Notes: a model not told the origin generated them from the sequence alone. Counted from the stretch's first letter, positions 8,138 through 27,435 are shown. The stretch is 55,890 nucleotides of DNA from Campylobacterales bacterium (GCA_031960985.1 JAVRLX010000003.1:1-55890), one strand, 5' to 3'. Made by a program: numbers and translations.

Positions 8138-8198
8138 TCCAAAAGAATTTTCTTGTAAAATCGTACACAAAAAATATAGAAAACTTAGGATATGACAA

Positions 8199-10114: not shown

Positions 10115-10138
10115 TTAATATCAAAAAAGGGCTTTGTG

Positions 10139-10528
10139 ATGACTCATTCGGATTTTGCGCATCCATATTTTGGCGCCTTCATATTGATGGTTTTTACCTT
10201 TGTCGCTTTTTTTGCAACTACAAATGTTGCGAGATTTGTAAGCCGCTTATTGGCAAAAAAAGATACGGAAAAACTAAAACTATCCATATATGAGTGCGGT
10301 CCGGAAGCAAACCTACAGCCAAACAAACTTTCGGCTCAGTTTTATCTATTCGGACTTCTTTTTATTTTGTTTGATATAGAGATTATTTTTATGTTTCCAT
10401 GGGCGCTTGATTTTAAGATGCTTGGATGGTTTGGGATGGTTGAGATGACAATATTTCTTATACTGCTTACAATTGGTTTTGTATATGCATGGAAAAAAGG
10501 AGCGCTTCAATGGCACAGCATAAAGTAA
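10139..10528 (+). CDS. nuoA: NADH-quinone oxidoreductase subunit A
   Basis: About 129 aa with three hydrophobic helices and 'YECGPE...[12 protein letters not shown]' (NuoA/ND3 signature). ATG at 10139 preferred over GTG at 10136 on Shine-Dalgarno spacing. Confidence 0.92.
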
Positions 10529-11019
10529 ACTACGCGGCAAGCGGCGGACTTCCGGTTGCATTAACTACGGTTGACAAGCTTGTAAACTGGGGGCGCTCAA
10601 ACAGCCTTTGGGCGTTTACATTTGGTCTTGCATGTTGCGCAATAGAGATGATGGCATCGGGCGCTGGAAGGTATGACTTTGACCGTTTCGGTACTATCTT
10701 TAGAGCCTCCCCTAGACAATCTGACGTAATGGTGGTAGCAGGTACGGTAACCAAAAAATACGCCCCTTTTATTAGGAGGCTATATGACCAAATGGCAGAG
10801 CCTAGATGGGTAATCTCTATGGGTTCATGCGCAAATACAGGTGGTATGTTTAACACATATAGCACCGTTCAAGGGGTAGATAGGATAATCCCTGTGGATA
10901 TTTATTTGCCAGGGTGTGCGCCAAGACCTGAGACTCTCCAATACGCAGTTATGATGCTCCAGCAACACATTAGAAAAAATAAAGCCTCTAGAGCCCAGAT
11001 ACAAAAAAGGTTTGTATAA
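10510..11019 (+). CDS. nuoB: NADH-quinone oxidoreductase subunit B (N2 cluster)
   Basis: '[17 protein letters not shown]', '[10 protein letters not shown]' and 'PGCAPRPE' are the N2 cluster ligand motifs. Start set at 'MAQHKVNY' (ATG 10510), overlapping the end of nuoA. Confidence 0.93.
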
Positions 11020-11816
11020 TGAGAAGATATACGCCAAAAGATAATGTCCAAAAGAAATCTTACTATACAGATAGGTTTAGAGCCCCTGATGTATTGCCAA
11101 AAGAGGATGTTGAAAATGATCCGATATTTGCAAAAGATACGGAGGAGCTAAAAAAGGTTTTTGATATTAAAGAGGCCTACATCCAAAGGGGTCAGCTTGT
11201 CGTAATCATAGACGCCACAAAAAATGTCGAAGTGATAAAGTTTTTTAAAGAGAAGTTGGCATACAACCAACTAAGTGAGATGAGCGCCGTAGACTTCGTA
11301 GCAAAGTGCGGAGGATTTGAGGTGTTTTATCAGCTTTTATCTATGAGTAAGAAAAAAAGAGCAAGGGTTAAGTGCTTTATTAAAGATGGCGAAAACATAG
11401 AGAGTGTATCTAATATCTACTCCTCTGCAAACTGGGCTGAAAGGGAGATGTATGATATGTTTGGTATTAGAGTCAACAATCACCCAATGCTAAAAAGAAT
11501 CCTACTTCCAGACGATTGGGTGGGGCATCCACTTCGCAAAACATATCCTTTGCAAGGGGATGAGTTTGCAAGCTGGTATGAAGTTGATAAAATCTATGGC
11601 AAAGAGGCAAGGGAGATTATTGGGCCAGAGCTTAGAGACGCCGCATTTATCGACAGACACGATACAACAAGATTTGCAAGGCTTGGCAAAGAGGTCGGAT
11701 ATGGCGAAGAGTACAAAGAGACAACTACTGAAATAGCGTATCAAGAGGAGGATAGACCACTCCTTATTGACAAATTTGACCCAAGCAAAACAACGCTTGC
11801 AGATAGAGAAAGATAG
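11019..11816 (+). CDS. nuoC: NADH-quinone oxidoreductase subunit C
   Basis: 265 aa. '[20 protein letters not shown]' is the NuoC/30-kDa subunit signature. Confidence 0.92.
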
Positions 11817-11830
11817 GAGGGGGCGATAAT

Positions 11831-13057
11831 ATGCAACAACCAAATAAACTACGCCCATTTTTTGAAAATATAACATTTGACCGTGAAGATAATAGAATGA
11901 TTGTTAACTTTGGTCCAAACCACCCGTCTGCACACGGTCTTTTGAACCTTATATTGGAACTAGAGGGCGAGCAGGTCGCAAAAGCGTATCCAAACATCGG
12001 TTTTCTCCACAGAGGGATGGAGAAAATGGCGGAAAACATGATATACAACGAGTTTTTGCCAACTACAGATAGGATGGATTATATCGCTGCTTCCTCAAAC
12101 AACTACGGTTTTGCCCTTGCGGTAGAGAAATTAATTGGTCTTGAAGTACCAAGAAGAGCAAAAGCCATCAGAACAATGCTAATTGAACTAAACAGAATTT
12201 GCTCACATCTATTTTTTATCGCTACGCACGCCCTTGATATTGGAGCAATGAGCGTATTTCTTTATGCTTTTAGAGAAAGAGAGCACGCAATGGACCTTAT
12301 TGAGGACTACTGCGGCGCAAGGCTAACGCACTCCTCCATTAGAATAGGTGGTGTGCCGCTCGATGTTACCCCCGCTTGGCTTGAAAAACTTAAAAATTAT
12401 ATAGACACTTTGGAAGAGAATATCCAAATATACGAAGGGCTTCTTGATTCAAACAGAATTTGGAGGATGAGGCTCGAAAATGTGGGTATATTACCTCCTG
12501 AGATGGCTATTGATTGGGGTTGCTCTGGCATTATGCTAAGAGGAAGCGGCATTAAATGGGATATTAGAAAAGAGGAGCCGTATGAGCTTTATGATGAGTT
12601 AGATTTTGATGTGCCAGTAGCCGAAACATGTGATAGTTATGGGAGATATAAATGTTATATGTTAGAGATGAGAGAGTCGGCCAAAATAATCGATCAGTGC
12701 ATCAAAATATACCATACAACCGAGCCAAAAATTATGGCGGAGGCTCCACAGTATATATCAGCGCCAAAAGAGCAGATAATGACTCAAAACTACTCTTTAA
12801 TGCAACACTTTGTACTTGTAACACAAGGGATGAGACCACCTAAAGGGGAGGTGTATGTAGCCACAGAGTCGCCTAAAGGGGAGCTTGGATACTACATCTA
12901 TAGCGACGGCGAGCCTTATCCTTATAGGCTAAAAATTAGAGCCCCAAGTTTCTGGCACACCGGAATTCTCCAAGCTTGGCTTCCAGGTGTTCAACTAGCC
13001 GATGTTGTAACGATGATAGGCAGCTCAAATACCGTATTTGGCGAGGTAGATAGATGA
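11831..13057 (+). CDS. nuoD: NADH-quinone oxidoreductase subunit D
   Basis: 408 aa. '[15 protein letters not shown]', 'HRGMEKMAE' and C-terminal 'VFGEVDR' are NuoD/49-kDa signatures. Confidence 0.95.
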
Positions 13058-13145: not shown

Positions 13146-13370
13146 ATGAAACGATTTGACCTTAGACATTTGAAAAATGATTTTTATAGCCGTATGGTGG
13201 AGCTTATGAATGAAAGTGTCGCAAAAGATGAGGTTGCAATATTTTTGTTTGAAGTAGGCGATTTTAGCCCTGTGCAAAAAAGCGCTGATTTGGTCAAAGA
13301 GAATGGTTGGATACTTATGAACAGTCTTAAATATAATGAAGTTGACTGGACAATTGTGGTAAAGAAATAA
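13146..13370 (+). CDS. small cysteine-free protein at the nuoE position (function unknown)
   Basis: 74 aa, AAGGAG 10 nt upstream, and a 1-nt gap to the next gene. No Cys, so it cannot carry the NuoE [2Fe-2S] cluster. 'FDLRHL...' with alternating beta/alpha propensity is weakly reminiscent of TusA/DUF2249-like small domains. Confidence 0.6.
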   Translation: MKRFDLRHLKNDFYSRMVELMNESVAKDEVAIFLFEVGDFSPVQKSADLVKENGWILMNSLKYNEVDWTIVVKK

Positions 13371-13371: not shown

Positions 13372-15369
13372 ATGGCAAATATCTTTTTTAGCCTCTGGCA
13401 AGACGAGCTTATAGACAACCGCAACAAAAGCGAAGGGGAGCTAGCAAAAAGCAAGTTTCACTTCCCATACGAATTTGAAGCAGGGCAAAATACAAAGGCT
13501 TTTATAGGTTGGGCTGGAGTTGCAATCTTTGATAAAAAGGTTGATGTAATTAAACTCGCCGTCGAATATGCAAAGACATACCAAGAATACTCTGAAGCTT
13601 GCGGTAGATGTGCGCCGGGTAGATGGGGTGGTAGGATAATCTATGATGTGTTGCATAAAATTGGCAGAGGCGAGGGGAGCGAAAATGATATTACCCACTT
13701 AAAAGAGATTTGTGCTTCGATGAAAGAGACCTCAAAGTGTGAAATAGGAAAGAGTGTTCCAAATCCAATTCTAGCGCTTTTGGAGCATTTTGAAGAAGAA
13801 TTTACAACACTTATCAAAGAGAAAAAAGCATCGCCTGATTTTTACAAAAATGATGTTTCATACATCGCCAAAATCACCGCCCCTTGCATGGACGCCTGTC
13901 CAGCGCATGTCGATATTCCAGCGTATATCGAAGGGGTTAGAGACCTTAGGTTTGACGATAGCCTAAAAGCAACTCGTCAAACTATGCCGCTAGCGCACAC
14001 TTGCGGTAGAGTATGTCCTCACCCTTGTGAGAGCGCTTGCAGAAGAACAAACCTTGATGAGCCTATAGCCATTATGGAATTAAAAAGAATAGGCGCTGAC
14101 TACGAGACAGATAGAGAACTTGGCTGGTTTCATCCTATAGAGCCAAAACCAAAAACCGATAAAAAAGTAGCCATAATAGGCGCAGGTCCTGCAGGTTTAA
14201 CAGCCGCATACTATTTAGGGGCTGAGGGAATACATTGCGATGTATACGAAGAGCTTCCGGTTTTGGGCGGCGAGGTGGCAGTTGGGGTCCCTGAGTACAG
14301 GATGCCAATTAGCAAATACAATAAAGATATAGAGCTTGTAAAAAGCGTCGGCACAAACTTTATTGTGAACACAAGAGTTACCGCCGATATGATGAGAGAG
14401 TTTGAAAAGTCGTATGATGCAATTTTGATAGCGACAGGGGCTAGACTCTCCAAAAAAATAAGGGCTAAAAACGAAAATCCAAAAGATAAGGGGTATTGGC
14501 CAGCCATCCCTTTCCTTGATGAGATAAATTTATATACAAAATATGGGATAGGTAGCCCTGTGGATTTGACTGGCAAAACCGTCGTATGTGTGGGCGGAGG
14601 CTTTACCTCTATGGACGTTGTCCGCTGCTCCATCCGCGCAAACGCAAAAAGGGTTGTAATGCTCTATAGGAGGGATGAGAAAACCATTATTAACAATACA
14701 TCCTATGAAGAGTACCACGAAGCGGTCGAGGAGGGTGTAGAGTTTATATTCTATAGCGCTATCGATGAGATAGTATCTGAAAACGGGCAAATTAAAAAAT
14801 TAATTGTAGATATGTATGAATTGGTGCCAGATCCTGCGGGCGGCAAACCACAACTTCTAAAGGCGGAGGGTAAAAGTTTTGAATTGGAGTGTGACATCCT
14901 AGTTCCTGCCGTTAGTCAAGATGCCGATTTGTCACTACTACCTGAAGAGTGGGAGATAGCAAAAACTAGCTGGAATACAATACTTACAGATGGCAAAACA
15001 TATCAGACAAATAAAGAAAAAGTGTTTGCCGCTGGCGACTGCGAATATGGTCCAATGACAATAGTTAACGCTGTAGGTCAAGCCAAAAGGGCTGCTAGCG
15101 TAATGGCTAGATATATTTTTGAAGGCAAGGTGTATAGAACTGATGAGGAGATAATGGAAGATCACCTCAAAGCGCTCAAAGTATATGATAAAAAAGAGGT
15201 TGTAAAAGGGTGGCTTAAAGGGCTCCATAGAGAGCATAGTGAAAAACTTGGGGTTGATGAGAGAAAAACAAATAACCTTGAAGTTAACTACGGCCTTACA
15301 ATCAAGCAGGCGATAGATGAAGCCAATCGGTGCATGAGATGTTATTATATAGCTATGGTGGCGGTGTAG
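13372..15369 (+). CDS. fusion flavoprotein at the nuoF position: NuoF C-terminal (N3 cluster-like) segment plus a GltD/NfnB-type NAD(P)H-dependent FAD oxidoreductase
   Basis: 665 aa. Res 70-145 'EYSEACGRCAPGRWGG...SKCEIGKSVPNPILALLEHFEEEF' aligns by eye to the NuoF 'ESCGxCxPCReG...C.lG...P..s.l..F..Ef' tail. Res 170-225 'APCMDACPAHVDIP...CGRVCPHPCESAC' is the GltD/DPD-type Fe-S domain. 'KKVAIIGAGPAGLTAAYYL' and 'KTVVCVGGGFTSMDV' are two Rossmann motifs, followed by 'VFAAGDC'. Confidence 0.85.
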   Translation: MANIFFSLWQDELIDNRNKSEGELAKSKFHFPYEFEAGQNTKAFIGWAGVAIFDKKVDVIKLAVEYAKTYQEYSEACGRCAPGRWGGRIIYDVLHKIGRGEGSENDITHLKEICASMKETSKCEIGKSVPNPILALLEHFEEEFTTLIKEKKASPDFYKNDVSYIAKITAPCMDACPAHVDIPAYIEGVRDLRFDDSLKATRQTMPLAHTCGRVCPHPCESACRRTNLDEPIAIMELKRIGADYETDRELGWFHPIEPKPKTDKKVAIIGAGPAGLTAAYYLGAEGIHCDVYEELPVLGGEVAVGVPEYRMPISKYNKDIELVKSVGTNFIVNTRVTADMMREFEKSYDAILIATGARLSKKIRAKNENPKDKGYWPAIPFLDEINLYTKYGIGSPVDLTGKTVVCVGGGFTSMDVVRCSIRANAKRVVMLYRRDEKTIINNTSYEEYHEAVEEGVEFIFYSAIDEIVSENGQIKKLIVDMYELVPDPAGGKPQLLKAEGKSFELECDILVPAVSQDADLSLLPEEWEIAKTSWNTILTDGKTYQTNKEKVFAAGDCEYGPMTIVNAVGQAKRAASVMARYIFEGKVYRTDEEIMEDHLKALKVYDKKEVVKGWLKGLHREHSEKLGVDERKTNNLEVNYGLTIKQAIDEANRCMRCYYIAMVAV

Positions 15370-15370: not shown

Positions 15371-17602
15371 ATGGAAGTTAAAATTACTATAAACGGCATG
15401 GAAATTACCGCCGATAAAAACGATACGATACTAAAAGCGGCAAGAAAAGCTGGCATATACATCCCTACCCTTTGCTATCTATCAAAATGTGAACCCATAG
15501 CCTCATGCAGACTCTGCGTTGTGGAGGCCGAAAATCAAGATGGGCTTATCCTTGCTTGCCAAACAAAAGTAGTTGACGGACTTGTTATAAATACAAACTC
15601 TGAGAAGTTAGCAAGAGAGCGACAAAAAATTATGGAGCTCTATTGCGTCAATCACCCGTTAGAGTGTGGTGTATGCGATAAATCTGGGGAGTGTGAGCTA
15701 CAAAATAAAACACTTGAATTTGGGGTAACCACCCAAGAGTTTATGGCAGTTGATCAAAAAAGAGAGATAAAAGATTGGAATCTTATACAGTACGACCCAT
15801 CTCTTTGTATCTTGTGCGAAAAATGTGTCCACACCTGCAATGAAATCATCGGGGACGATGCAATAGAGATAAAAGTTGGGGGCTATAAATCAATTATAGG
15901 GCCAAAAAACTCTGAGATGCTAAATTGCACATTTTGCGGGGAGTGCATTGCTGTTTGCCCAGTTGGTGCACTAATTTCAAAAGAGTTTAAATACAAATCA
16001 AACGCTTGGGAGCTTAAAAAAGTTCCATCCTCTTGCGCACACTGCTCATCGGCGTGTCATCTATATTACGAAGTAAAACATGAAAAAACAGAGTCGTTAG
16101 AGCAAAAAATTTATAGAGTCTCAAATGAGTTTGAGTTTAGCACCCTTTGCAAAGCTGGAAGATTTGGATTTGATTTTGATAATAAAGCCACAAAAGATGA
16201 AAAAGCATTTGAAAAGGCTGTAGGCGCTCTAAAATCAGCTAGAACTATCAAATTTAACTCATTTATTACGAATGAAGAAGCCAAAATACTTCAAACGATA
16301 AAAGAAAAATTGGGAGTAAAACTTGTAAACCCTGATGCTTATAATTTTAAAAAGTTTATGGATGCATACGCTAGCGTTAGTGGTAAGAGTTTGTACTCAG
16401 CAAGCCTAAGTGATATTAAAAACAGCGATGGGATTATTGTTATTGGCGCAATGATAAGCGTTGATAATCCAATGGTAAGATATGCCCTAAATGAAGCCTC
16501 AAAAAAACAAAATGCAAAAGTTGTATATTTACACCCGATAGAAGATCCTTTGCTTAGCGCAAATGTCAATAAATTTGTCAAATATGAGCCAAAAAGCGAA
16601 GAGGGGGTGATAGCACTACTTGCATCTATTTTTGTGGATAAAAATGCCCTAAATGATGAGCAAAAAAGATTTTTTGATGAGCTCGATGTGGGATATGTAA
16701 GCTCAGAAGCAAGCTTTGATGAAGCAGAGCAGGAGATAGTAGCCAAAATGTTTAAAAGGGCGAAAAACAAAACTCTCATCCTCGGCGCCGACCTTTATTC
16801 ACACCCAAGAGCAGAAAATATAGCAAGACTTGCTGGTTTGTTTGAAAGGGCATCTGGTTTTAAAGTCTTAATTATCCCTTCACAAACAAATACACTAGGC
16901 GTATCTATGATTTGTGATTTGGATGAAAAAGGGGAAGGATTTACAGTTGGGTATAACGAAGAGGGGGATTTTGTTCTTACTTCTTTGGGAAGTGAGGGAA
17001 GAGATAACGCCCTTGATATGCCAGCTCTTAATCAACAAGAGGGGACATTTGTAAATATAGATAAAAGGGTAGTTCCTCTAAATGCGGCTATAGAGTTTAA
17101 AGGGTATGAACTAAATGACCTTGCAAACGCTTTAGGAATTAAAAAAGAGTTTACTATCGACTATACAAAAGAGCTATTTGATGGTGTAGCATTTGATGAT
17201 TTACCTAATAGATTTTTAAATGATGGCACAGAAGATAGAGGGTATGTTTTAAAACCAAAAGATGTTGAAATAAATGGCAAAATAGAAGATGTTGCAGAGC
17301 TTGAAGAGATGAATGGGACACTTGTTTATGTCTCTAATCCGGTGGGGCAGTTTAATGAGTGGACAAAAAAAAGCCAAAATCTAAACTACAAAAAGGGACA
17401 AATCTTGGGCTCTAAGGCCTTTATGGTAGCCGCTAAAGTTAGAGATTCTGAACAAATCTGTGTAACAAGCGAAAAAGGTGAGATGGTAGGTAATTATAAG
17501 TTATGTGAAAACCTAAAAGGAACTGTTGCTATAGTTTCAACGCTTGATTTTAAAGCAGACGGATATAGATTTCAAAGAGCAAAAATAAGTGTTCAAGGGT
17601 AG
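15371..17602 (+). CDS. nuoG: NADH-quinone oxidoreductase subunit G, paralogue 1 (743 aa)
   Basis: [2Fe-2S] region 'CYLSKCEPIASCRLCVVE', 'NHPLECGVCDKSGECELQ', 'CILCEKCVHTC', 'CTFCGECIAVCPVGAL', plus an N7-like 'SSCAHCSSACHLYYE...LCKAGRFGFDF'. Confidence 0.9.
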   Translation: MEVKITINGMEITADKNDTILKAARKAGIYIPTLCYLSKCEPIASCRLCVVEAENQDGLILACQTKVVDGLVINTNSEKLARERQKIMELYCVNHPLECGVCDKSGECELQNKTLEFGVTTQEFMAVDQKREIKDWNLIQYDPSLCILCEKCVHTCNEIIGDDAIEIKVGGYKSIIGPKNSEMLNCTFCGECIAVCPVGALISKEFKYKSNAWELKKVPSSCAHCSSACHLYYEVKHEKTESLEQKIYRVSNEFEFSTLCKAGRFGFDFDNKATKDEKAFEKAVGALKSARTIKFNSFITNEEAKILQTIKEKLGVKLVNPDAYNFKKFMDAYASVSGKSLYSASLSDIKNSDGIIVIGAMISVDNPMVRYALNEASKKQNAKVVYLHPIEDPLLSANVNKFVKYEPKSEEGVIALLASIFVDKNALNDEQKRFFDELDVGYVSSEASFDEAEQEIVAKMFKRAKNKTLILGADLYSHPRAENIARLAGLFERASGFKVLIIPSQTNTLGVSMICDLDEKGEGFTVGYNEEGDFVLTSLGSEGRDNALDMPALNQQEGTFVNIDKRVVPLNAAIEFKGYELNDLANALGIKKEFTIDYTKELFDGVAFDDLPNRFLNDGTEDRGYVLKPKDVEINGKIEDVAELEEMNGTLVYVSNPVGQFNEWTKKSQNLNYKKGQILGSKAFMVAAKVRDSEQICVTSEKGEMVGNYKLCENLKGTVAIVSTLDFKADGYRFQRAKISVQG
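16025..16399. repeat. mosaic high-identity block, copy A (56 bp identical, ~63 bp diverged, ~255 bp at roughly 90 %)
   Basis: Aligned by eye to 18337-18711 at a constant offset of 2312. 16025-16080 is identical. In 16144-16399 I counted about 24 mismatches. Confidence 0.8.
16774..17364. repeat. 591-bp perfect direct repeat, copy A (inside nuoG paralogue 1)
   Basis: Base-by-base comparison with 19242-19832 (offset 2468) showed no mismatch. Identity stops abruptly at both ends. Confidence 0.95.
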
Positions 17603-17610
17603 CAAAATAA

Positions 17611-20076
17611 ATGGCAAATGTTAAATTTTTTATAGACGGGCGAGAAGTAAAGGGGAGCGACTCTGAGACGATACTAAATATCGCAAGGGCAAATAATATT
17701 TTTATCCCCGCAATATGCTATCTCAATAGATGCTCTCCTACTTTAGCGTGCAGGCTTTGTTTGGTTGAGGCGGATGGGAAGCAGGTATTTGCATGTAACG
17801 CAAAACCTAAAGAGGGGATGCAGGTAGTCACCAACTCCGAAGAGGTAAAAGCGGAGCGAAAAGCTATTATGCAAGCTTACGATATTAACCACCCTTTGGA
17901 GTGTGGCGTGTGCGACAAATCTGGAGAGTGCGAGCTACAAAACTATACGATGGAAGTTAGCGTTGACACCCAAGAGTATAGTGTGGCCGACTGCCCAAGA
18001 CCTATTAGAAAATGGGGGCTAGTTAAATACGACTCATCGCTTTGTATCGTGTGTGAAAGATGTATAACAGTATGTAAAGATATGGTAGGAGATAACGCAC
18101 TTACTACTACCCCAAGAGGTGGCGCCGAGATAGACAAAAAATACAAAGAGGTTATGCCAAAAAACGCATTTACGATTTGGACAAGGATGCAAAAAAACAT
18201 TATCGGCACAAAAAGCGGCAATCCAGATGTGCTTGATTGTACGCTATGCGGTGAGTGCATAGCTGTTTGCCCAGTTGGCGCTCTAACAAGCTCCGATTTT
18301 ACCTACAAATCAAACGCTTGGGAACTTCGCCAAATACCATCCTCTTGCGCACACTGCTCATCGGCGTGTCATCTATATTACGAAGTAAAACACACATCCA
18401 TAGACAACGCCGAAGAAAGAATATATAGAGTTAGGAATGAATGGAATTTTCAAAGCCTTTGCAAAGCTGGCAGATTTGGATTTGATTTTGACAATAAAGC
18501 TACAAAAGATGAAAAAGCCTTTGAAAAAGCGATAGGGGCTCTAAAATCAGCTAGAACTATCAAATTTAACTCATTTATCACCAATGAAGAAGCCAAAATA
18601 CTTCAAACAATAAAAGAGAAAAACGGCGTAAAACTAGTAAACTCTGATGCTTATAACTTTAAAAAGTTTATTGGCGCCTACTCTAGCGTTAGTGGTAAGA
18701 GTTTGTACTCATCCGATCTAAAGGATGTTCGCGCAAGTAATTTTGTAATCACGCTTGGCTCCATGATAAAAACGGACAATCCAATACTCAGATTTGGGGT
18801 AAATAACGCCGTTACGATGAACAAGGGCGCCGCTGTGTATATGCACCCAATTAATGACGCTGTAATCTCTGGGCTATCCAAAAATCTATTACAGCTAAAT
18901 TATAAACCTTTAAGTGAAGAAAAAACGCTACTTGCGCTAATAGACACATTCTGCGAAAAAGACAAATTACCGTCAGATATAACCGAAAAACTAAAATCTT
19001 TAGAGGTTAAATACACAAAAACTGTTACCGAAAAGGTAAAAGAGAGGGTTAAAGAGCTAATTAAAGAAAAAGTGGTGGCTGAGGATGGCACAGAGTCTGA
19101 AGTTGAAAAAGAGGTAGAAAAAGAGGTTGAAAAATCGGTAAGCAAAGAAGTAGAGATGACATCCTCTAAACTCTTTGAACAAATCGGCCTTGAGTTAGAA
19201 GATATGGAGAAAATGAAGGCTCTTAAAAAAGATAAAGCCGTTCTCATCCTCGGCGCCGACCTTTATTCACACCCAAGAGCAGAAAATATAGCAAGACTTG
19301 CTGGTTTGTTTGAAAGGGCATCTGGTTTTAAAGTCTTAATTATCCCTTCACAAACAAATACACTAGGCGTATCTATGATTTGTGATTTGGATGAAAAAGG
19401 GGAAGGATTTACAGTTGGGTATAACGAAGAGGGGGATTTTGTTCTTACTTCTTTGGGAAGTGAGGGAAGAGATAACGCCCTTGATATGCCAGCTCTTAAT
19501 CAACAAGAGGGGACATTTGTAAATATAGATAAAAGGGTAGTTCCTCTAAATGCGGCTATAGAGTTTAAAGGGTATGAACTAAATGACCTTGCAAACGCTT
19601 TAGGAATTAAAAAAGAGTTTACTATCGACTATACAAAAGAGCTATTTGATGGTGTAGCATTTGATGATTTACCTAATAGATTTTTAAATGATGGCACAGA
19701 AGATAGAGGGTATGTTTTAAAACCAAAAGATGTTGAAATAAATGGCAAAATAGAAGATGTTGCAGAGCTTGAAGAGATGAATGGGACACTTGTTTATGTC
19801 TCTAATCCGGTGGGGCAGTTTAATGAGTGGACCGCCAAATGCTCTCAACTAAAAGAGGGGGCAAATATAGTGTATGTTGGTAAAAAAGCGGCTGAAATAC
19901 ATAACCTAAAAGATGATGATGAAATAAGACTTACAATTGGCGCTTACAAAGTCAAAATTGACCAAAAAGTCTCATCAAATATCCTTTTGGTACCAGCGTA
20001 TGAGCCAAATAATCCGGGATTTGAGACCCTGCGAGAAGGGTACAAATTTAGGACAACTGAGATCATCAAGGGGTAA
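17611..20076 (+). CDS. nuoG: NADH-quinone oxidoreductase subunit G, paralogue 2 (821 aa)
   Basis: Same full set of Fe-S motifs: 'CYLNRCSPTLACRLCLVE', 'NHPLECGVCDKSGECELQ', 'CIVCERCITVC', 'CTLCGECIAVCPVGAL', 'SSCAHCSSACHLYYE'. Its length matches what I recall for Campylobacter/Helicobacter NuoG (~820-840 aa). Confidence 0.9.
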   Translation: MANVKFFIDGREVKGSDSETILNIARANNIFIPAICYLNRCSPTLACRLCLVEADGKQVFACNAKPKEGMQVVTNSEEVKAERKAIMQAYDINHPLECGVCDKSGECELQNYTMEVSVDTQEYSVADCPRPIRKWGLVKYDSSLCIVCERCITVCKDMVGDNALTTTPRGGAEIDKKYKEVMPKNAFTIWTRMQKNIIGTKSGNPDVLDCTLCGECIAVCPVGALTSSDFTYKSNAWELRQIPSSCAHCSSACHLYYEVKHTSIDNAEERIYRVRNEWNFQSLCKAGRFGFDFDNKATKDEKAFEKAIGALKSARTIKFNSFITNEEAKILQTIKEKNGVKLVNSDAYNFKKFIGAYSSVSGKSLYSSDLKDVRASNFVITLGSMIKTDNPILRFGVNNAVTMNKGAAVYMHPINDAVISGLSKNLLQLNYKPLSEEKTLLALIDTFCEKDKLPSDITEKLKSLEVKYTKTVTEKVKERVKELIKEKVVAEDGTESEVEKEVEKEVEKSVSKEVEMTSSKLFEQIGLELEDMEKMKALKKDKAVLILGADLYSHPRAENIARLAGLFERASGFKVLIIPSQTNTLGVSMICDLDEKGEGFTVGYNEEGDFVLTSLGSEGRDNALDMPALNQQEGTFVNIDKRVVPLNAAIEFKGYELNDLANALGIKKEFTIDYTKELFDGVAFDDLPNRFLNDGTEDRGYVLKPKDVEINGKIEDVAELEEMNGTLVYVSNPVGQFNEWTAKCSQLKEGANIVYVGKKAAEIHNLKDDDEIRLTIGAYKVKIDQKVSSNILLVPAYEPNNPGFETLREGYKFRTTEIIKG
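18337..18711. repeat. mosaic high-identity block, copy B
   Basis: Partner of 16025-16399 (see that entry). Confidence 0.8.
19099..19134 (+). repeat. 3 x 12-bp imperfect tandem repeat encoding (EVEK)3
   Basis: 'gaagttgaaaaa gaggtagaaaaa gaggttgaaaaa', read directly. It lies in the K/E-rich insertion specific to nuoG paralogue 2. Confidence 0.85.
19242..19832. repeat. 591-bp perfect direct repeat, copy B (inside nuoG paralogue 2)
   Basis: Identical to 16774-17364. It encodes the same 197 aa ('ILGADLYSHPRAENIARLAG...VSNPVGQFNEWT') in both genes. Confidence 0.95.
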
Positions 20077-20078: not shown

Positions 20079-21068
20079 ATGGAAGCTTACATCATAGAGA
20101 CGATAGTCAAAATAATTGTCGTTGTAGCGGTTTTTTCCGCGCTAGCGGGATTTGCTACATATGTAGAGAGGAAGGTGTTGGCCTTTATGCAACGAAGGCT
20201 TGGGCCTATGCATGTTGGACCGTATGGAGTACTACAAATTTTAGCTGATGGTATCAAGCTATTTACCAAAGAGGATATTGTTCCTCAAAATGCCATCAAG
20301 CCTATATTTAAAATAGCTCCAGTGATTACTGCGGCTACCGCTTTTATAGCTATGGCCGCAATACCGTTTTTGCCTGAATTTGAGCTATTTGGACACACGG
20401 TAAGACCTATTATTTCAGATGTAAATGTTGGCATTCTTTTTGTCCTATCGGTAATGGCTACGGGGATGTACGGCCCTCTTTTAGCTGGTATATCTTCAAG
20501 GAGCAAATGGGCGCTACTAGGTGGCGCTAGAACTGTTATTCAAATGCTAAGCTTTGAGGTTGTATCTGGCTTTGCTTTGCTTGCTCCGCTTATGATGGTA
20601 GGCTCTTTATCGCTAATAGAGATTAACAATTACCAATCTGGCGGTATATCTCATTGGCTTATCTGGTATCAACCAGTCGCTTTTGTATTATTTATTATCG
20701 CTGGATATGCAGAGACCAATAGAACCCCTTTTGACCTTCTTGAGCATGAAGCGGAAGTTGTATCTGGTTATGCTACCGAGTATTCGGGTATGAGATGGGG
20801 TATGTTCTTTATTGGCGAATATGCAAATATGTTTACGATAGCATTCCTTGTCTCTATCGTATTCTTCGGCGGTTTCAACCCAATCGGCTTTATTCCAGGC
20901 GGTGTTGCCATTATCCTAAAAGCGTTCTTTTTTATATTCTTGTTTTTGTGGGCAAGAGCTGCGTGGCCACATGTTAGACCTGACCAACTTATGTGGCTAT
21001 GCTGGAAGGTGCTTATGCCGCTTGCGGTTGTAAACATACTAGTTACCGGTTTATTTATTCTGATTTAG
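20079..21068 (+). CDS. nuoH: NADH-quinone oxidoreductase subunit H
   Basis: 329 aa, polytopic. 'VERKVLAFMQRRLGP', 'NRTPFDLLEHEAEVVSGYATEYSGM' and 'RPDQLM' are NuoH/ND1 signatures. Confidence 0.95.
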   Translation: MEAYIIETIVKIIVVVAVFSALAGFATYVERKVLAFMQRRLGPMHVGPYGVLQILADGIKLFTKEDIVPQNAIKPIFKIAPVITAATAFIAMAAIPFLPEFELFGHTVRPIISDVNVGILFVLSVMATGMYGPLLAGISSRSKWALLGGARTVIQMLSFEVVSGFALLAPLMMVGSLSLIEINNYQSGGISHWLIWYQPVAFVLFIIAGYAETNRTPFDLLEHEAEVVSGYATEYSGMRWGMFFIGEYANMFTIAFLVSIVFFGGFNPIGFIPGGVAIILKAFFFIFLFLWARAAWPHVRPDQLMWLCWKVLMPLAVVNILVTGLFILI

Positions 21069-21077
21069 GGGTTTGGG

Positions 21078-21656
21078 ATGGGATATAAGATTGTAGAGAT
21101 AGAAAAATACCCTGTTAGCCCTCTCGCTAAATTTGCAAGGGTGGTTAAACGCTCTTTAAGGCTAGAGTTATTTGTTGGACTTTGGATAGTTCTAAAAGAG
21201 ATGATCAAGTTTGACATCCATACTGTCCAGTATCCAAAAGAGAAATTGCCGATAGGCCCGAGATACAGAGCTGTTCACGAGCTTTTGAGACTACTTGAAA
21301 GTGGAAATGAAAGATGTATCGGCTGTGGACTTTGCGAAAAGATATGCATATCAAAATGCATTAGAATGGATACCTTCCAAGACGAAAACGGCAGAAAAGC
21401 AGTCAGTGAATACACAATAAATTTGGGCAGATGTATATTTTGTGGCTACTGTGCCGAGGTGTGCCCTGAGCTTGCAATCGTACATGGCCCAAGATACGAA
21501 AATGCATCTGAGCAAAGAGCCCACTTTGTTTTAAAAGACGATATGCTAACCCCTATCGACTTTTTAAAAGCTGGCAAACAAAAAGAGTTTGAAGGTTTCG
21601 GCGCCATTAGCGCAGACGCCGACAAAAATATCAAACAAACGCCTCTAGCGTATTAA
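21078..21656 (+). CDS. nuoI: NADH-quinone oxidoreductase subunit I (2 x [4Fe-4S])
   Basis: 192 aa with '[11 protein letters not shown]' and '[12 protein letters not shown]'. Confidence 0.93.
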
Positions 21657-21666
21657 AGGGATAAAA

Positions 21667-22251
21667 ATGTTTGAACAAATAGCTTTTTATACGTTTGCAG
21701 GCCTCACGGCGGCAATGTTTCTAATCACCGTTACAAGCAAAAACATACTCTATGCGATGAGCGCCCTTGCCGCTGGGATGATATTTATCTCTGGATTTTT
21801 CTTTATCCTAAACGCAGATTTTCTCGGAGTTGTGCAAATAGTTGTATATGCGGGGGCGGTAATGGCTTTGTATGCGTTTGGAATGATGTTTTTTGACAGC
21901 GCAAAAGAGAGTGAAGAAAAAATCAAAAATCCAAAAAAGACACTTGTAATGTCGGTAGCCACTGCGGTTTTGATAGTGCTTATGCTAAGCGCTCCTATAG
22001 CGGCAAGCAAGCCCGATGTGTTGATGGAGAGCGTAACTGGGATGCAAAATCCTCAAGCGATAGGCGCTATTTTATTTACAAAATATCTAATCCCTTTTGA
22101 GCTAGCCTCTTTAATGCTTCTTATAGCAATGATTGCTGGGATTGTACTCGCAGGTAAGAAAATGGATGAGAGTTTAACCACAAATAGCGACGAAGAGATG
22201 CAAATTCTTGAAGAGTTTAGACTTGACGGCGATACAAAGGAGCATAAATGA
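21667..22251 (+). CDS. nuoJ: NADH-quinone oxidoreductase subunit J
   Basis: 194 aa hydrophobic. 'GVVQIVVYAGAVMALYAF' is typical of NuoJ/ND6. Operon position fits. Confidence 0.88.
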   Translation: MFEQIAFYTFAGLTAAMFLITVTSKNILYAMSALAAGMIFISGFFFILNADFLGVVQIVVYAGAVMALYAFGMMFFDSAKESEEKIKNPKKTLVMSVATAVLIVLMLSAPIAASKPDVLMESVTGMQNPQAIGAILFTKYLIPFELASLMLLIAMIAGIVLAGKKMDESLTTNSDEEMQILEEFRLDGDTKEHK

Positions 22252-22550
22252 TAACTTTAAATCAATATCTTATTTTGGCGACCCTCCTCTTTTGTATAGG
22301 GCTTTTTGGCGTCATTAGAAGAAAAAATCTTTTAATGCTATTTTTTGCAACAGAGATTATGCTAAATGCGGTCAATATAGCGCTTGCGGCTATTAGTTAT
22401 TTTATGCACGACCTTACGGGACAGATTTTTGCGTTTTTTATTATAGCGATTGCGGCTAGCGAAGTAGCGGTTGGGCTAGGCTTTTTGATACTTATGTACA
22501 AAAGAATGGGCTCACTCGATCTTGACAATCTACAGATTATGAAAGGGTAG
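22248..22550 (+). CDS. nuoK: NADH-quinone oxidoreductase subunit K
   Basis: 100 aa with three TM helices. 'MLFFATEIMLNAVNIAL' and 'AIAASEVAVGLGFLI' are NuoK/ND4L signatures. Confidence 0.92.
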   Translation: MITLNQYLILATLLFCIGLFGVIRRKNLLMLFFATEIMLNAVNIALAAISYFMHDLTGQIFAFFIIAIAASEVAVGLGFLILMYKRMGSLDLDNLQIMKG

Positions 22551-22555
22551 CCAAT

Positions 22556-24418
22556 ATGGAAAATTTGCTTTATATAACGCTTTTTGCTCCGCTTGTAGGC
22601 TCTATATTTGCCGCGCTATTCGGTGGATGCAAGAAAAACATATTAGCCGGTATCGTACCTAGCGCGCTTCTTTTTATCGCCACCATTACGGCCATTATAC
22701 AGCTTGGCGCAGTTATTGAGGGGAAAGTTATTAACGCAACGCTATTTGAGTGGATAGCCTCAGGCAACTTTAGAGTTGATTTTGGCTTTACAGCAGATCA
22801 AATATCTGTTGTAATGATGTGCGTCGTAACAATTGTTTCTACCCTTGTGCACATCTACTCTATCGGATACATGAGCCACGATGAGGGTTTTAATAGATTT
22901 TTTAGCTACCTATCGTTGTTTGTATTCTCAATGCTAGTACTTGTAATGAGCGATAATTTCCTCGGTCTTTTTATCGGCTGGGAAGGGGTTGGTCTATGTT
23001 CATGGCTACTTATCGGCTTTTGGTATAAAAAACCGTTTGCCACTTGGGCTGCAAATGAAGCATTTATAATGAACCGTGTGGCCGACCTTGGAATGCTTGT
23101 GGGTCTGTTTATTATATTTTGGCATACAGGAAGCCTAAAATACACTGAAGTTTTTACCGCAATAAAAGGTATCGACTCTACAGTTTTATCTTTAGCGGCG
23201 GTATTTTTGTTTATCGGCGCAATGGGAAAATCGGCTCAGTTTCCGTTTCATACTTGGCTTGCAGATGCAATGGAGGGTCCAACTCCTGTTTCAGCCCTTA
23301 TCCACGCCGCTACGATGGTTACAGCAGGGGTTTATTTGATGGTTAGAGGGCACGAACTATTTGCTCTTACGCCTGAAGTTAGCTTATTTGTGGCCTCTCT
23401 TGGTGCTTTCGTTGCGGCATTTGCCGCTACAATGGGTCTTGTCAATCGTGATCTCAAAAGAATTATAGCCTACTCCACCCTCTCGCAATTAGGGTATATG
23501 TTTGTTGCGGCAGGGCTTGGAGCGTATTGGGTCGCCTTGTTTCACCTTATGACGCACGCATTCTTTAAAGCCCTCTTGTTCCTTGGCGCAGGCAATGTAA
23601 TGCATGCAATGCACGACGAGCTTGACATCAAAAAAATGGGTGGACTATACAAACCAATGAAAGCGACAGCTATTATGATGATACTAGCCTCCGTCGCCCT
23701 TGCAGGTATCTATCCGTTTGCCGGCTTTTTCTCAAAAGATAAAATCTTAGAGGTAGCGTTTGGGACACACCATTACATCCTATGGGCAACACTTTTGATA
23801 ACTGCGGTACTTACAGCGTTTTATAGCTTTAGACTTATTATGCTTGTATTTTTTGGAAAAGAGAACTACAAAGAGCATTTCCCAACCCTTCATCCACACG
23901 AAGCCTATTGGTATATGCTTGCCGCGATGGCTCCACTTGCCGTTCTTGCCGCAATAGCCGGTTTCTTTGAACACTCTTTAATTGAGCTTTTACACAAAAT
24001 AATGCCTATTTTGCATCCGCATATGGAAGAAGGGACAATTATGGCGCTTATAGCCGTTACGACGGTGGCTGTCGTATCCTCTATAGCATTTACGGTCTAC
24101 AAATATAACAAAGGGGGATTTAGTAAAGAGCTTGAAAATAGCTTTTTGTATAAACTGCTTTACAATCAATACTATATCCCTGAGCTTTACAACAGATTTT
24201 TGGTTGCCCCATACATCAAACTCTCAGAGTTTGCATGGAAAAAGATAGACTTAAAAATTATCGACTTTATCGTTGATGCTATCGCCCTTATTATTTACAA
24301 AAGTGGTGAAAAATCGAGATACATTCAAAGCGGTAATCTATCTTCGATGCTTAGATGGATGGTCGCCGGTATTTTAATACTAATAATTTTTGCGGCTCTT
24401 TATAGCCCGATTAAGTAA
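22556..24418 (+). CDS. nuoL: NADH-quinone oxidoreductase subunit L
   Basis: 620 aa antiporter-like subunit. 'GWEGVGLCSWLLIGFW', 'GKSAQFPFHTWLADAMEGPTPVSALIHAATMVTAG'. Confidence 0.95.
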   Translation: MENLLYITLFAPLVGSIFAALFGGCKKNILAGIVPSALLFIATITAIIQLGAVIEGKVINATLFEWIASGNFRVDFGFTADQISVVMMCVVTIVSTLVHIYSIGYMSHDEGFNRFFSYLSLFVFSMLVLVMSDNFLGLFIGWEGVGLCSWLLIGFWYKKPFATWAANEAFIMNRVADLGMLVGLFIIFWHTGSLKYTEVFTAIKGIDSTVLSLAAVFLFIGAMGKSAQFPFHTWLADAMEGPTPVSALIHAATMVTAGVYLMVRGHELFALTPEVSLFVASLGAFVAAFAATMGLVNRDLKRIIAYSTLSQLGYMFVAAGLGAYWVALFHLMTHAFFKALLFLGAGNVMHAMHDELDIKKMGGLYKPMKATAIMMILASVALAGIYPFAGFFSKDKILEVAFGTHHYILWATLLITAVLTAFYSFRLIMLVFFGKENYKEHFPTLHPHEAYWYMLAAMAPLAVLAAIAGFFEHSLIELLHKIMPILHPHMEEGTIMALIAVTTVAVVSSIAFTVYKYNKGGFSKELENSFLYKLLYNQYYIPELYNRFLVAPYIKLSEFAWKKIDLKIIDFIVDAIALIIYKSGEKSRYIQSGNLSSMLRWMVAGILILIIFAALYSPIK

Positions 24419-24427
24419 GGAGAGCAG

Positions 24428-25957
24428 ATGGAAAATATCTTATCGCTTTTACTATTGTTTCCGGCTCTCGCCGCAGTAGTCGGGGCATTTGTACCAAAGC
24501 AGAATATAAAAACATTTGGCGCGGTAGCAACGGGATTAGAGTTTTTGCTTACAATTCCTGTACTGCTTGGCTTTGATCCAAAAAATCCCGGGTTTCAGTT
24601 TACGGAGAAGTTTCCGCTAATACCAGATTATGGGATATTTTACTATGTTGGAGTAGATGGTTTTTCTGTTTATCTCCTCGCGCTATCGACATTTATATCT
24701 TTTATAGCGATAGTTGCGTTAGAAGATCTAAAAAATATGAAAAACCTCATTATTACCCTCCTTTTTATGGAAGTAACAATGGTGGGCTTTTTTATCGCCC
24801 TTGACGCCATAGTGTTTTATATATTCTTTGAGCTCTCTTTGGTCCCTATGATGTATATTATTGGCTCATGGGGTTCATACAAAAGGGTGTATGCGGCGGT
24901 AAAATTTTTCCTATATACATTTGCTGGCTCACTTATTATGCTTTTAGGTGTTATCTATCTTGGATATGCATTTCACGAAGCAACAGGCGTTTGGAGTTTT
25001 GCTATTCCAAACTGGCATCTACTATTGCTGCCGTTTGATGTCCAGATATTGGTATTCCTTGCGTTTTTTGCCGGTCTTGCAGTCAAAGTCCCAATGTTTC
25101 CTTTCCACACATGGCTTCCGTATGCGCACGGTCAAGCTCCAACAGTTGGCTCGGTAATACTTGCGGCGGTACTCCTTAAAATGGGTACATACGGCTTCTT
25201 GCGGCTCTCATTTCCAATCATGCCAGATGCAACGCTATATTTTGTAACCCCAATTGCAATACTCTCCCTTATCATGGTAGTCTATACCGCCATGATAGCT
25301 TTCGCTCAAAGCGATATGAAGCAAGTTGTGGCATATAGCTCGGTTTCTCACATGGGCATTATTATGCTTGGTATGTTTGCGCTAAATGTGGAGGGTATCG
25401 CAGGTTCTGTATTTTTGATGATTAGCCACGGTATCGTCTCAGGCGCGCTGTTTATGCTTGTTGGAGTCATATATGAGAGGCTTCACACCAAAGAGATGAG
25501 CGAGTTTGGCGGTATTACTAGTGTGATGCCAAAATATGGGACAATATTTGGTATCGTCCTTATGGGCTCTGTCGGTCTGCCGCTTACTATCGGCTTTGTG
25601 GGTGAATTTTTATCACTTTTAGGCTTTTTTAAAGTATCCCCTATAATGACGCTAATTGCTGGAACTACAATAATCTTAGGCGCTATATACATGCTAAATC
25701 TCTTTAGAAAATCGTTCTTTGGACAAGTTACAAATCAAAAAATATTTGAGCTCAAGGATTTGACAAAAAGGGAGCTTGCAGGGCTTATTCCACTAACAAT
25801 TCTCGTGATAGTGTTAGGTGTATATCCAAAGCCAGTACTACAACCTGCAGAGTCTAGCGCAAAGCATCTAGTGGAACTAATGTTCAAAAAATCTCAAAGC
25901 TTTAACGCAAAACTAAGCATTTTAGATTACAACTCACTTTCAGGAGGCGCGAAGTGA
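24428..25957 (+). CDS. nuoM: NADH-quinone oxidoreductase subunit M
   Basis: 509 aa. 'VKVPMFPFHTWLPYAHGQAPTVGSVILAAVLLKMGTYGF'. Operon position fits. Confidence 0.93.
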   Translation: MENILSLLLLFPALAAVVGAFVPKQNIKTFGAVATGLEFLLTIPVLLGFDPKNPGFQFTEKFPLIPDYGIFYYVGVDGFSVYLLALSTFISFIAIVALEDLKNMKNLIITLLFMEVTMVGFFIALDAIVFYIFFELSLVPMMYIIGSWGSYKRVYAAVKFFLYTFAGSLIMLLGVIYLGYAFHEATGVWSFAIPNWHLLLLPFDVQILVFLAFFAGLAVKVPMFPFHTWLPYAHGQAPTVGSVILAAVLLKMGTYGFLRLSFPIMPDATLYFVTPIAILSLIMVVYTAMIAFAQSDMKQVVAYSSVSHMGIIMLGMFALNVEGIAGSVFLMISHGIVSGALFMLVGVIYERLHTKEMSEFGGITSVMPKYGTIFGIVLMGSVGLPLTIGFVGEFLSLLGFFKVSPIMTLIAGTTIILGAIYMLNLFRKSFFGQVTNQKIFELKDLTKRELAGLIPLTILVIVLGVYPKPVLQPAESSAKHLVELMFKKSQSFNAKLSILDYNSLSGGAK

Positions 25958-27435
25958 CACCTATTTCTATAAATTTCGCAGACCTCAATCTGCCTACGCT
26001 TTATCCGGTATTTATTACCACGATAGGCGCTCTTTTACTGCTTGTCATTGACCTTATTAAGACGCCTACAAAAGCATTCAATACGATGTTTTCCGTTGCA
26101 GTTGTTTTACTCTCACTTTTTGCGCTTTTAAACACTGGCGCAAATCAGGTTGGCTTTTTCGGGCTTATTACGATAGATGGCGTCGCCATACTAGCCCAAG
26201 GTATAATCCTTGTTGCCTCCGCTCTATTTTTACCGCTTTCGCTCACTTCGCAGAGATTTCATGAGTTTGAATATACGGAATTTTTTGCGCTATTTCTATT
26301 TTTAGTGAGTGGTTTTCAGGTTATGGTGTCGACCGACAATCTTATCCTTATGTTTATAGCTCTTGAGGCGGCATCGCTTGCACTTTATACAATTATCGCT
26401 ATGCACAATAGAGATAGATCAATAGAGGCCGCGGTAAAATACTTTACTATGGGCGCATTGGCTGCTGGTTTTTTTGCGTTTGGTGGAGCGCTGTTTTATC
26501 TTGCGACTGGAAGCGTCGAGCTTGAAAAATCTTTTTTTGCGCTTCAAAACTCGGGCGCGCATAATTTTGAGATACTGCTTGTCTCTTTGGCGTTTTTGGT
26601 GGGCGCTATTGGCTTTAAGCTTTCAGTGGTTCCTTTCCACACTTGGACGCCAGATGTATACGAGGGCGCTAGCGCTCCTCTTGCCGGATATATGTCAATT
26701 GTTCCAAAAATCGCAGCTTTTGTTATTGCGATAAGAGTGTTTGAATTCCTTGTCGCCTCCGATCTTGAGTGGATCAAAACGATGCTTTGGATAGCTGCCG
26801 TTGCGACAATGACGATAGGAAATATCTTGGCTCTTGTACAAGAGTCGGTAAAAAGAATGCTTGCGTTTAGCTCAATTAGTCACGCCGGCTTTGGTCTTGT
26901 GGCAATACTCATCGCCACAAATGAAGCAAATAGCGCTTTATTTATGTACTGGACTTTATTTATGTTTGCCAACCTTGGCGCATTTACAATGCTGTGGATA
27001 TCTAGACACAAAAGCAAGATATTCCACAATAGATTTGACCACCCGTACACAAAATTTAGCGGTATGATATACATAGCCCCTATCCCTGCGATAATTATGG
27101 CAATTTTTATGCTAAGCCTTGCAGGGATACCTCCATTTGCCTTATTTTGGGGCAAGTTTTATCTAATTGGTGCAACAATGACTGCAGGATATATAGGGCT
27201 TGCACTTATTATGGCGCTTAATAGTGCAATAGCAGTATATTATTATCTCAAACTTATCGTTTATATGTTCCTTAGAGAGCCATCATACAACGATGGAACA
27301 ATATATATGCGAAATGCAACTGCGCCATTTAAATTTATACTAGCAATTGCCGCATTCTTCTCGGTATTTTCTATTTTTATTATAAATGATATCCTAAACG
27401 GCTACGGCGCTATCTTAAAAAGCTCAGGTTTTTAA
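25954..27435 (+). CDS. nuoN: NADH-quinone oxidoreductase subunit N
   Basis: 493 aa. 'FKLSVVPFHTWTPDVYEGASAPLAGYMSIVPK'. GTG start overlaps the nuoM stop (GTGA). Confidence 0.92.
   Translation: MTPISINFADLNLPTLYPVFITTIGALLLLVIDLIKTPTKAFNTMFSVAVVLLSLFALLNTGANQVGFFGLITIDGVAILAQGIILVASALFLPLSLTSQRFHEFEYTEFFALFLFLVSGFQVMVSTDNLILMFIALEAASLALYTIIAMHNRDRSIEAAVKYFTMGALAAGFFAFGGALFYLATGSVELEKSFFALQNSGAHNFEILLVSLAFLVGAIGFKLSVVPFHTWTPDVYEGASAPLAGYMSIVPKIAAFVIAIRVFEFLVASDLEWIKTMLWIAAVATMTIGNILALVQESVKRMLAFSSISHAGFGLVAILIATNEANSALFMYWTLFMFANLGAFTMLWISRHKSKIFHNRFDHPYTKFSGMIYIAPIPAIIMAIFMLSLAGIPPFALFWGKFYLIGATMTAGYIGLALIMALNSAIAVYYYLKLIVYMFLREPSYNDGTIYMRNATAPFKFILAIAAFFSVFSIFIINDILNGYGAILKSSGF

Follow-up and report, generated by a model that had tools for sequence, protein, structure and literature searches.

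Ancient tandem nuoG paralogues of Campylobacterales share an internal block homogenised by recurrent gene conversion

A stretch of 55,890 nucleotides (nt) from a Campylobacterales bacterium (GCA_031960985.1, JAVRLX010000003.1:1-55890; hereafter the window) contains a nuo operon for respiratory complex I in which two complete nuoG genes follow each other on the plus strand. As originally predicted, the short paralogue nuoG1 (G1; 743 amino acids (aa), 15371-17602) and the long paralogue nuoG2 (G2; 821 aa, 17611-20076) are intact open reading frames (ORFs) separated by a gap of 8 nt (17603-17610). Both genes contain a block of ~200 codons, within the C-terminal molybdoenzyme-like domain, which is identical base for base. 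This identity is the result of recurrent, tract-limited gene conversion (i.e., concerted evolution), and neither of selection for an identical interface nor of an assembly artefact. The gene arrangement is of the type already described as Suden_1824-1822 in Sulfurimonas denitrificans and belongs to Campylobacterota that oxidise sulfur and hydrogen, while the concerted evolution of an internal nuoG block in two lineages appears to be new. Taken as a whole, we read the locus, with a probability of roughly 0.75, as a non-canonical complex I operon of chemolithoautotrophic Campylobacterota, in which an ancient and recurrently converted pair of NuoGs is co-expressed as subunits of one enzyme.

The likeness of the two paralogues depends strongly on the segment compared. 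Over their full length, BLASTP aligns G1 and G2 with 472 identities out of 823 positions (57%). The N-terminal iron-sulfur (Fe-S) domains (G1 aa 1-214, 15371-16012; G2 aa 1-238, 17611-18324) are 53% identical with a synonymous divergence (dS) of 2.24, and an insertion lengthens the G2 copy by ~24-25 codons (aa 172-194 and another 2, about 18124-18192) between two CxxCxxCxxxC motifs, in line with the diverged N-terminal thirds and the 24-codon indel seen in the original prediction. This first insertion corresponds to an extra region at aa 175-204 of Suden_1822. The next segment, containing the N7 ligands (G1 aa 215-335, 16013-16375; G2 aa 239-359, 18325-18687), is 82% identical at the protein level and 83% at the nucleotide level, with a dS of 0.46. 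The middle of the proteins had been estimated at about 90% identity, which holds for the sub-stretch at G1 aa ~275-335 only: not for the N7 segment as a whole, and still less for the variable segment that follows (G1 aa 336-467), where identity is ~35% and dS is 2.46. The variable segment of G2 (18688-19241) also includes a second insertion that had been overlooked, a K/E-rich region of ~50-75 aa at G2 aa ~465-540, which corresponds to aa 466-532 of Suden_1822.

Downstream of the variable segment, the block of G1 (aa 468-665, 16774-17364) and that of G2 (aa 544-741, 19242-19832) are 100% identical over 591 nt, with no synonymous difference over 197 codons. Its dS is 0.008, against rounded values of 2.2 for the N-terminal segment, 2.5 for the variable segment and 1.8 for the tail. 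The identity of the 197 aa preceding the last ~80 residues, already recognised at the protein level, hence extends to the DNA. Both genes end with a paralogue-specific C-terminal tail (about 78 aa in G1, 17365-17602; about 80 aa in G2, 19833-20076), and the tails are only 16% identical, with a dS of 1.77. Chance cannot account for 591 consecutive identical bases between flanks of ~40-60% identity.

Comparison with relatives shows how this pattern came about. Ten genome loci were fetched, of which three come from complete genomes (Nitratiruptor sp. SB155-2, Sulfurimonas sp. HSL-1716 and Hydrogenimonas sp. SS33); loci of relatives and metagenomes carry labels beginning with L. In trees built by segment from ten G1/G2 pairs, the N-terminal, variable and tail segments each separate into clean G1 and G2 clades, and in the N7 segment the paralogues group by lineage. 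In the block tree, the two paralogues cluster by genome in the window, L001, L007, L008 and L009, as well as in Nitratiruptor. Within the lineage of the window, the blocks of one genome are 93-99.5% identical at the nucleotide level versus 74-83% between species, and the latter value is the same whether G1 is compared with G1, G2 with G2 or G1 with G2. Similarly, in the four complete genomes of Nitratiruptoraceae (Nitratiruptor SB155-2, Nitrosophilus kaiyonis, N. alvini and N. labii), the block is 96.6-100% identical at the protein level within genomes and 77-84% between species. Exact intragenic repeats reach 591 nt in the window, 580 nt in L001, 361 nt in L007, 622 nt in SB155-2, 1133 nt in L009, 1350 nt in L014 and 1292 nt in L017.

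The features of gene conversion are therefore found together: the likeness within genomes exceeds that between genomes, it includes synonymous sites, it stops at sharp boundaries, and the flanks keep the G1-versus-G2 phylogeny. These data show that conversion occurred independently in each of five species of the window lineage and in each of the four species of Nitratiruptoraceae, and the N7 segment is the product of an older and lesser conversion. The original prediction had explained the homogenised C-termini as a docking surface shared by interchangeable isoforms, an explanation which gains no support from these data. The block is diverged in other lineages. Where its copies match, they do so at synonymous positions as well, and homogenisation took place species by species, which reflects gene conversion and not selection for one interface.

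Conversion tracts differ in length, age and direction. In L009, the tract spans the variable segment with G1 as the donor, and G2 has lost the K/E-rich insertion and is reduced to 778 aa. The opposite is seen in L014, where G1 has received a G2-type variable region together with the insertion and reaches 801 aa; the K/E-rich insertion is consequently not strictly bound to one paralogue. In L007 and L008, the tracts are partly decayed, with 93% identity. Within-genome identity of the N-terminal domains of G1 and G2 stays at 0.50-0.54 in all ten genomes, and no tract reaches into the N-terminal Fe-S domain or the final ~75-80 residues in any genome examined. Furthermore, Sulfurimonas HSL-1716, Hydrogenimonas SS33 and several lineages of metagenome-assembled genomes (MAGs) carry a block without homogenisation, with 47-53% identity between paralogues, as in the N-terminus. 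In a separate comparison between species of Nitratiruptor and Nitrosophilus (pairs P0134/P0023, P0135/P0021, P0139/P0022 and P0144/P0018), the block is 77-84% identical at the protein level versus 82-95% for the N-terminal domain. The lower conservation of the block fits a scaffold-like role.

The repeat also leaves traces in metagenome assemblies. Seven independent short-read contigs (L018, L038, L057, L045, L029, L003 and L005) end at G1 aa ~469-506, i.e., at the block start plus about one k-mer. Another contig ends 127 nt into the G2 copy of the block (L002:9880-10006), and the 1994-nt contig L006, from the same MAG as L003, may be the segment between two block copies. This suggests that the exact repeat is carried by many more genomes than the complete contigs show. 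Two loci have a single NuoG between the flavoprotein gene and nuoH. In L059 (3425-5689), a NuoG of 754 aa combines a G1-type N-terminus and variable segment, the block and a G2-type tail. In L088 (2736-4979), a NuoG of 747 aa has a G1-type N-terminus and variable region, with an ambiguous tail assignment. A chimera of the L059 type is expected from unequal recombination across the block and equally from the collapse of the repeat by the assembler.

The two-NuoG arrangement is widespread and old. The nuo gene order of the window is found in all ten fetched genome loci, and the arrangement also occurs in Nitrosophilus. Metagenomes were scanned with an alignment of the 665-aa flavoprotein encoded directly upstream of G1 (13372-15369), and the NuoG genes found were classified by tblastn. 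In the 54 metagenome loci with enough downstream DNA, a G1-type N-terminus directly follows the flavoprotein gene and a G2-type N-terminus lies ~2.25 kb further. Across the ~65 loci examined, the flavoprotein-G1 pair is always located between nuoD/nuoX and nuoG2/nuoH. NuoG identity is highest, at 83-89%, with Campylobacterales MAGs, the closest relatives of the window, and drops to ~52-58% with named genera. As the flanking segments yield separate G1 and G2 clades, the duplication predates the divergence of these genera: it is older than the split of Nitratiruptor, Sulfurimonas, Hydrogenimonas and the Campylobacterales lineage of the window. That G1 is a recent lineage-specific duplicate is ruled out by the ancient split in these trees. 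The ratio of nonsynonymous to synonymous substitution rates (dN/dS) between orthologues is 0.03-0.13 in every segment of both paralogues, with 0.1-0.4 in the tails. Both NuoG copies are hence under strong purifying selection, and both genes are maintained.

The pair had been considered unusual, but publications have covered it since 2008: a preprint on S. denitrificans (Götz et al. 2019, bioRxiv 10.1101/717884) credits the first notice of two NuoGs to Weerakoon & Olson 2008. In S. denitrificans, Suden_1824 is an NfnB-like replacement of NuoF, Suden_1823 a short NuoG and Suden_1822 a long NuoG; the two NuoGs are 36% identical and have similar transcript levels, and the two-NuoG composition was described as “universally conserved” in Sulfurimonas and Sulfurovum (10.1101/717884). 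Götz et al. also put forward a reverse-electron-transport hypothesis for this complex I (10.1101/717884). The operon of S. denitrificans resembles that of the window in gene order, in its short/long NuoG pair and in its NfnB-like flavoprotein, and its long NuoG shares with G2 both extra regions, the first in the ferredoxin domain and the second around aa 466-532. The difference lies in the paralogues of the window, which are 57% versus 36% identical and not uniformly diverged; their higher identity is due to the identical 591-nt block and to the N7 segment (~83% nt). A literature search combining nuoG with gene conversion returned nothing relevant, and concerted evolution is not mentioned in 10.1101/717884.

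In Campylobacter jejuni and Helicobacter pylori, NuoX and NuoY replace NuoE and NuoF in a complex I with flavodoxin as the donor (Weerakoon & Olson 2008, as reported in PMC6682613). The window shares with them a NuoX-like gene with a PF16514 domain, an epsilon-type NuoG (G2) and the lack of canonical nuoE/F in the operon. Both species have one NuoG and a NuoY gene, whereas the window has a 665-aa NfnB/GltD-like flavoprotein at the NuoY position and, in addition, G1. A different parallel is provided by tufA and tufB of enterobacteria, which undergo concerted evolution by gene conversion. As for these genes, the nuoG blocks are near-identical within a genome and diverge between species, synonymous sites included. 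Unlike in tufA/tufB, conversion in the window is limited to an internal block of tandem genes with strongly diverged ends, leading to a stable mosaic and not to whole-gene homogenisation. Two separate lineages show this pattern, with boundaries at similar places.

Both paralogues have the make-up of complete NuoG proteins. The Pfam families Fer2_4, NADH-G_4Fe-4S_3 and Fer4_Nqo3/dicluster are found in G1 and G2, and the prediction that both keep all cluster motifs was borne out, as all ligands are present and are kept in 10/10 G1 and 9-10/10 G2 orthologues. In G1 numbering, these are C35/46/49/63 for N1b, H95/C99/102/108 for N5, two ferredoxin-type 4Fe-4S motifs (C146/149/152/156 and C186/189/192/196) and C222/225/229/260 for N7. 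Each protein hence has the ligands of an epsilon-type NuoG, i.e., those for N1b, N5, N4 plus the additional 4Fe-4S cluster, and N7. With the NCBIfam model of the epsilon/Campylobacterota-type NuoG (NF006305, PRK08493; curated cut-off 591 bits), G1 scores 904 bits in two stretches, and a single stretch of G2 spans model positions 2-799 of 819 with 1079 bits. The end-to-end match of G2 agrees with its earlier assignment to the size class of Campylobacter and Helicobacter NuoG, and the G2 type is presumably the only NuoG of these two genera. G1 was also considered as a formate dehydrogenase (molybdenum/tungsten-bis-pyranopterin guanine dinucleotide alpha subunit), and this was rejected: it scores 31 bits with TIGR01591 against a cut-off of 666, and only its overall fold is FdsA-like.

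AlphaFold predicts a confident C-terminal domain at G1 aa ~270-660, with a predicted local distance difference test score (pLDDT) mostly above 80-90 and dips to about 70, and the cofactor-dependent N-terminal domain has low confidence. Foldseek returned fold-level matches over the full length to FdsA/FdhA and Nqo3/NuoG. In sequence and profile searches of the PDB, alignments to solved NuoG, FdhA and HydA chains are limited to the N-terminal ~275 aa; G1 also aligns to the NuoG-like part of 8oh5_C. The K/E-rich insertion of G2 is predicted to form a long, protruding two-stranded beta-hairpin with ~25 residues per strand (G2 aa 465-519, ~19000-19230), at a pLDDT of 55-63.

The flavoprotein, a homologue of Suden_1824, combines the C-terminal domain of NuoF (N3-type 4Fe-4S, aa ~20-166) with an NfnB/GltD-like part containing two 4Fe-4S clusters and a flavin adenine dinucleotide (FAD)/NAD(P)H domain (Fer4_20 and Pyr_redox_2). 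Its best PDB matches are StnC/NfnA-type chains (9bov_A, 8oh5_C and 9n5u_A) and NfnB (4ylf_B). Across the ten aligned loci it is 70-92% identical, and 66-90% in the metagenome loci; with 66-92% protein identity across genera, it is far more conserved than either NuoG of the same genomes (~52-60%). The flavoprotein gene and G1 are adjacent at every locus examined. Modules made of GltD-like and NuoG-like proteins are known, namely SfrBA, StnC and NsoC (PMC7483475), which lends plausibility to the originally suggested pairing of G1 with this flavoprotein. Geobacter SfrBA, Sporomusa StnC (8oh5), NfnABC (9n5u, 9bov) and Thermococcus NsoC all share with the window a GltD/NfnB-like FAD/NADPH domain and two 4Fe-4S clusters, combined with a NuoG-like Fe-S protein. 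However, these enzymes are soluble, with parts fused in StnC and NsoC, whereas in the window the proteins are encoded by separate genes of a membrane complex I operon and the flavoprotein has the additional NuoF-type N3 domain. Thus, the window has the SfrAB/StnC-type NADPH-FAD subunit beside a NuoG-like partner, but always inside the nuo operon and not as a stand-alone gene outside a membrane-complex operon. The retained N3 domain is the part of NuoF which we take to dock on NuoG in complex I.

From these data, a functional model can be proposed. As tracts never enter the N-terminal domain or the tail, we infer that selection removes any tract overwriting either part and that the two parts carry the functions specific to each paralogue. 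The block would be functionally interchangeable, as would the variable segment in some genomes. The conversion map can be read as a natural domain-swap experiment: the ~200-residue block can be exchanged between G1 and G2, and some genomes extend this to everything from N7 to the block. Both NuoGs would be co-expressed subunits of one enzyme, with G2 in the canonical NuoG position above NuoI. G1, the flavoprotein with its N3-type cluster and FAD/NADP(H) site, and NuoX would form an input/output module between the quinone pool on one side and NADP(H) and ferredoxin on the other. In line with the proposal of Götz et al. for S. denitrificans (10.1101/717884), this module would probably work in the reverse direction and supply the reductive tricarboxylic acid (TCA) cycle. 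A more detailed version of this model is offered only tentatively and is unlikely to hold in all its parts: both NuoGs would be placed in one complex I, related pseudo-symmetrically via their C-terminal domains, with G2 feeding NuoI and G1 bridging to the flavoprotein, and the enzyme, driven by the proton-motive force, would oxidise quinol and reduce NADP+ and ferredoxin in a bifurcating-type reaction that powers the reductive TCA cycle.

Several points weigh against this reading of the locus. Conversion is lineage-restricted, and long repeats are present in only 2 of the 47 metagenome loci with complete G1 and G2, a count which comes out too low, as the repeat interrupts short-read contigs. 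The long tracts of L009, L014 and L017 come from metagenome assemblies only, and the exact 591-nt identity in the window assembly would itself lean on the independent assemblies and finished genomes. Searches of the PDB by sequence, by profile and with Foldseek yielded no solved complex with two NuoGs. The co-residence of both NuoGs in one particle, and the choice of the one that holds the canonical site, are proposed from the genes, and the orthology of G2 with the single NuoG of Campylobacter and Helicobacter would follow from the NF006305 match and from protein sizes.

If G1 and G2 were alternative isoforms, they would compete for the same site on NuoB/C/D/I and give two versions of complex I with different electron donors, the block being their shared docking surface. 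The differing N-terminal domains, the full NuoG fold predicted for both paralogues and the interchangeability of the block in several lineages are all in keeping with this. However, with 47-53% identity in Sulfurimonas, Hydrogenimonas and further lineages, the block there has diverged as far as the N-terminus, so that a docking surface common to both paralogues is not conserved. In addition, the C-terminal tails are in every case specific to their paralogue, with 13-35% identity, and the transcript levels published for the S. denitrificans copies are similar (10.1101/717884). The two genes are translationally coupled in the middle of an operon with intergenic gaps of 1-8 nt around them, and no regulatory signal lies between them: promoter and terminator scans of the region 9.8-28.2 kb gave as many matches as expected from shuffled sequences, with none between G1 and G2. 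Finally, both types follow the flavoprotein gene at every locus with enough downstream DNA, except the single-NuoG loci L059 and L088. Alternative isoforms are hence considered improbable.

A similarly low probability is given to the possibility that G1 and the flavoprotein form a soluble, SfrAB/Stn-like NADPH:ferredoxin oxidoreductase which is merely co-transcribed with the nuo genes, leaving G2 as the sole NuoG of complex I. Such an enzyme would be comparable to the GltD-like and NuoG-like pairs that occur in soluble form (PMC7483475), and the best structural relatives of the flavoprotein are the soluble StnC, NfnA and NfnB enzymes. Against this, the pair keeps its place between nuoD/nuoX and nuoG2/nuoH in all ~65 loci, the flavoprotein retains the NuoF C-terminal N3 domain, presumed to dock on NuoG, and the operon has no canonical NuoE/F to serve G2.

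It is very unlikely that the blocks in fact differ and that one consensus was placed in both copies during assembly. Metagenome assemblers do mishandle the repeat, as seen from the broken contigs and from the possibly collapsed chimeric NuoGs of L059 and L088. Nevertheless, the block is identical or near-identical in the four complete isolate genomes (Nitratiruptor SB155-2 and three Nitrosophilus species) and in independent MAGs from different studies, and the 93% tracts of L007 and L008 show that assemblers separate copies that differ. Purifying selection on an extremely constrained domain has a negligible probability as the sole origin of the identity and is refuted by the absence of synonymous differences over the 197 codons. 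The block is predicted to be well folded (pLDDT mostly above 80-90 across aa 470-660, with dips to about 70), but it differs by 17-26% in nucleotides between species and by 16-23% in protein in Nitratiruptoraceae, and in lineages without conversion its two copies share only ~50% identity.

The rest of the operon, all on the plus strand, encodes the remaining complex I subunits. Upstream lie nuoA (10136-10528), nuoB (10489-11019), nuoC (11019-11816) and nuoD (11831-13057), recognised together by the Pfam families Oxidored_q4, Oxidored_q6, Complex1_30kDa and Complex1_49kDa (10136-13057). They are followed by the NuoX-like gene (13146-13370), encoding a Campylobacterota-specific NuoE replacement of 74 aa (PF16514, NADH-UOR_E, 131 bits over the full length), which occupies the same position in all fetched relatives, and by the flavoprotein gene in the place of nuoF (Pfam NADH_4Fe-4S, Fer4_20 and Pyr_redox_2). 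In two relatives, a 31-aa ORF was called between nuoD and the NuoX-like gene (L007:1442-1537 and L014:264-359). Downstream of G2 lie nuoH (20079-21068), nuoI (21078-21656), nuoJ (21667-22251), nuoK (22248-22550), nuoL (22556-24418), nuoM (24428-25957) and nuoN (25954-27435), covered by NADHdh, Fer4 dicluster, Oxidored_q3, Oxidored_q2 and Proton_antipo_M/N (20079-27435). In L014, nuoH is split into two ORFs (7487-8484; 159 and 174 aa) on a low-coverage MAG contig, probably by a frameshift or sequencing error.

Immediately upstream of nuoA and on the same strand, a 578-aa AAA+ ATPase with a winged-helix domain is encoded at 8199-9935, with a TTG start call. Elsewhere the window is core chromosome and holds, among others, a ribosomal-protein operon, secY, rpoA, hisD and a Csd4/Pgp1-type M99 peptidase, and an Rfam scan of the window gave no matches. 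The peptidase belongs to a pair at 31493-33749 (+), in which a YkuD L,D-transpeptidase with a Cds6 C-terminal domain precedes the Peptidase_M99 carboxypeptidase. Such helical-cell-shape genes are typical of Helicobacter and Campylobacter relatives and consistent with the taxonomic placement.

The comparison provides a residue-level map of the two NuoGs, in which the N-terminal Fe-S domain and the tail are paralogue-defining and the block, sometimes with the K/E-rich hairpin region, is interchangeable. This map can be used for the design of constructs for cryo-electron microscopy, multimer modelling and genetics in Nitratiruptor or Sulfurimonas. Furthermore, an exact repeat of 0.4-1.3 kb breaks or collapses short-read assemblies, and calls of a single or chimeric NuoG at this operon in MAGs are untrustworthy. 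Campylobacterota using the reductive TCA cycle dominate sulfidic vents, redoxclines and groundwater. For their supply with low-potential ferredoxin and NADPH, the two-NuoG complex I with its NfnB-like flavoprotein is the leading candidate.

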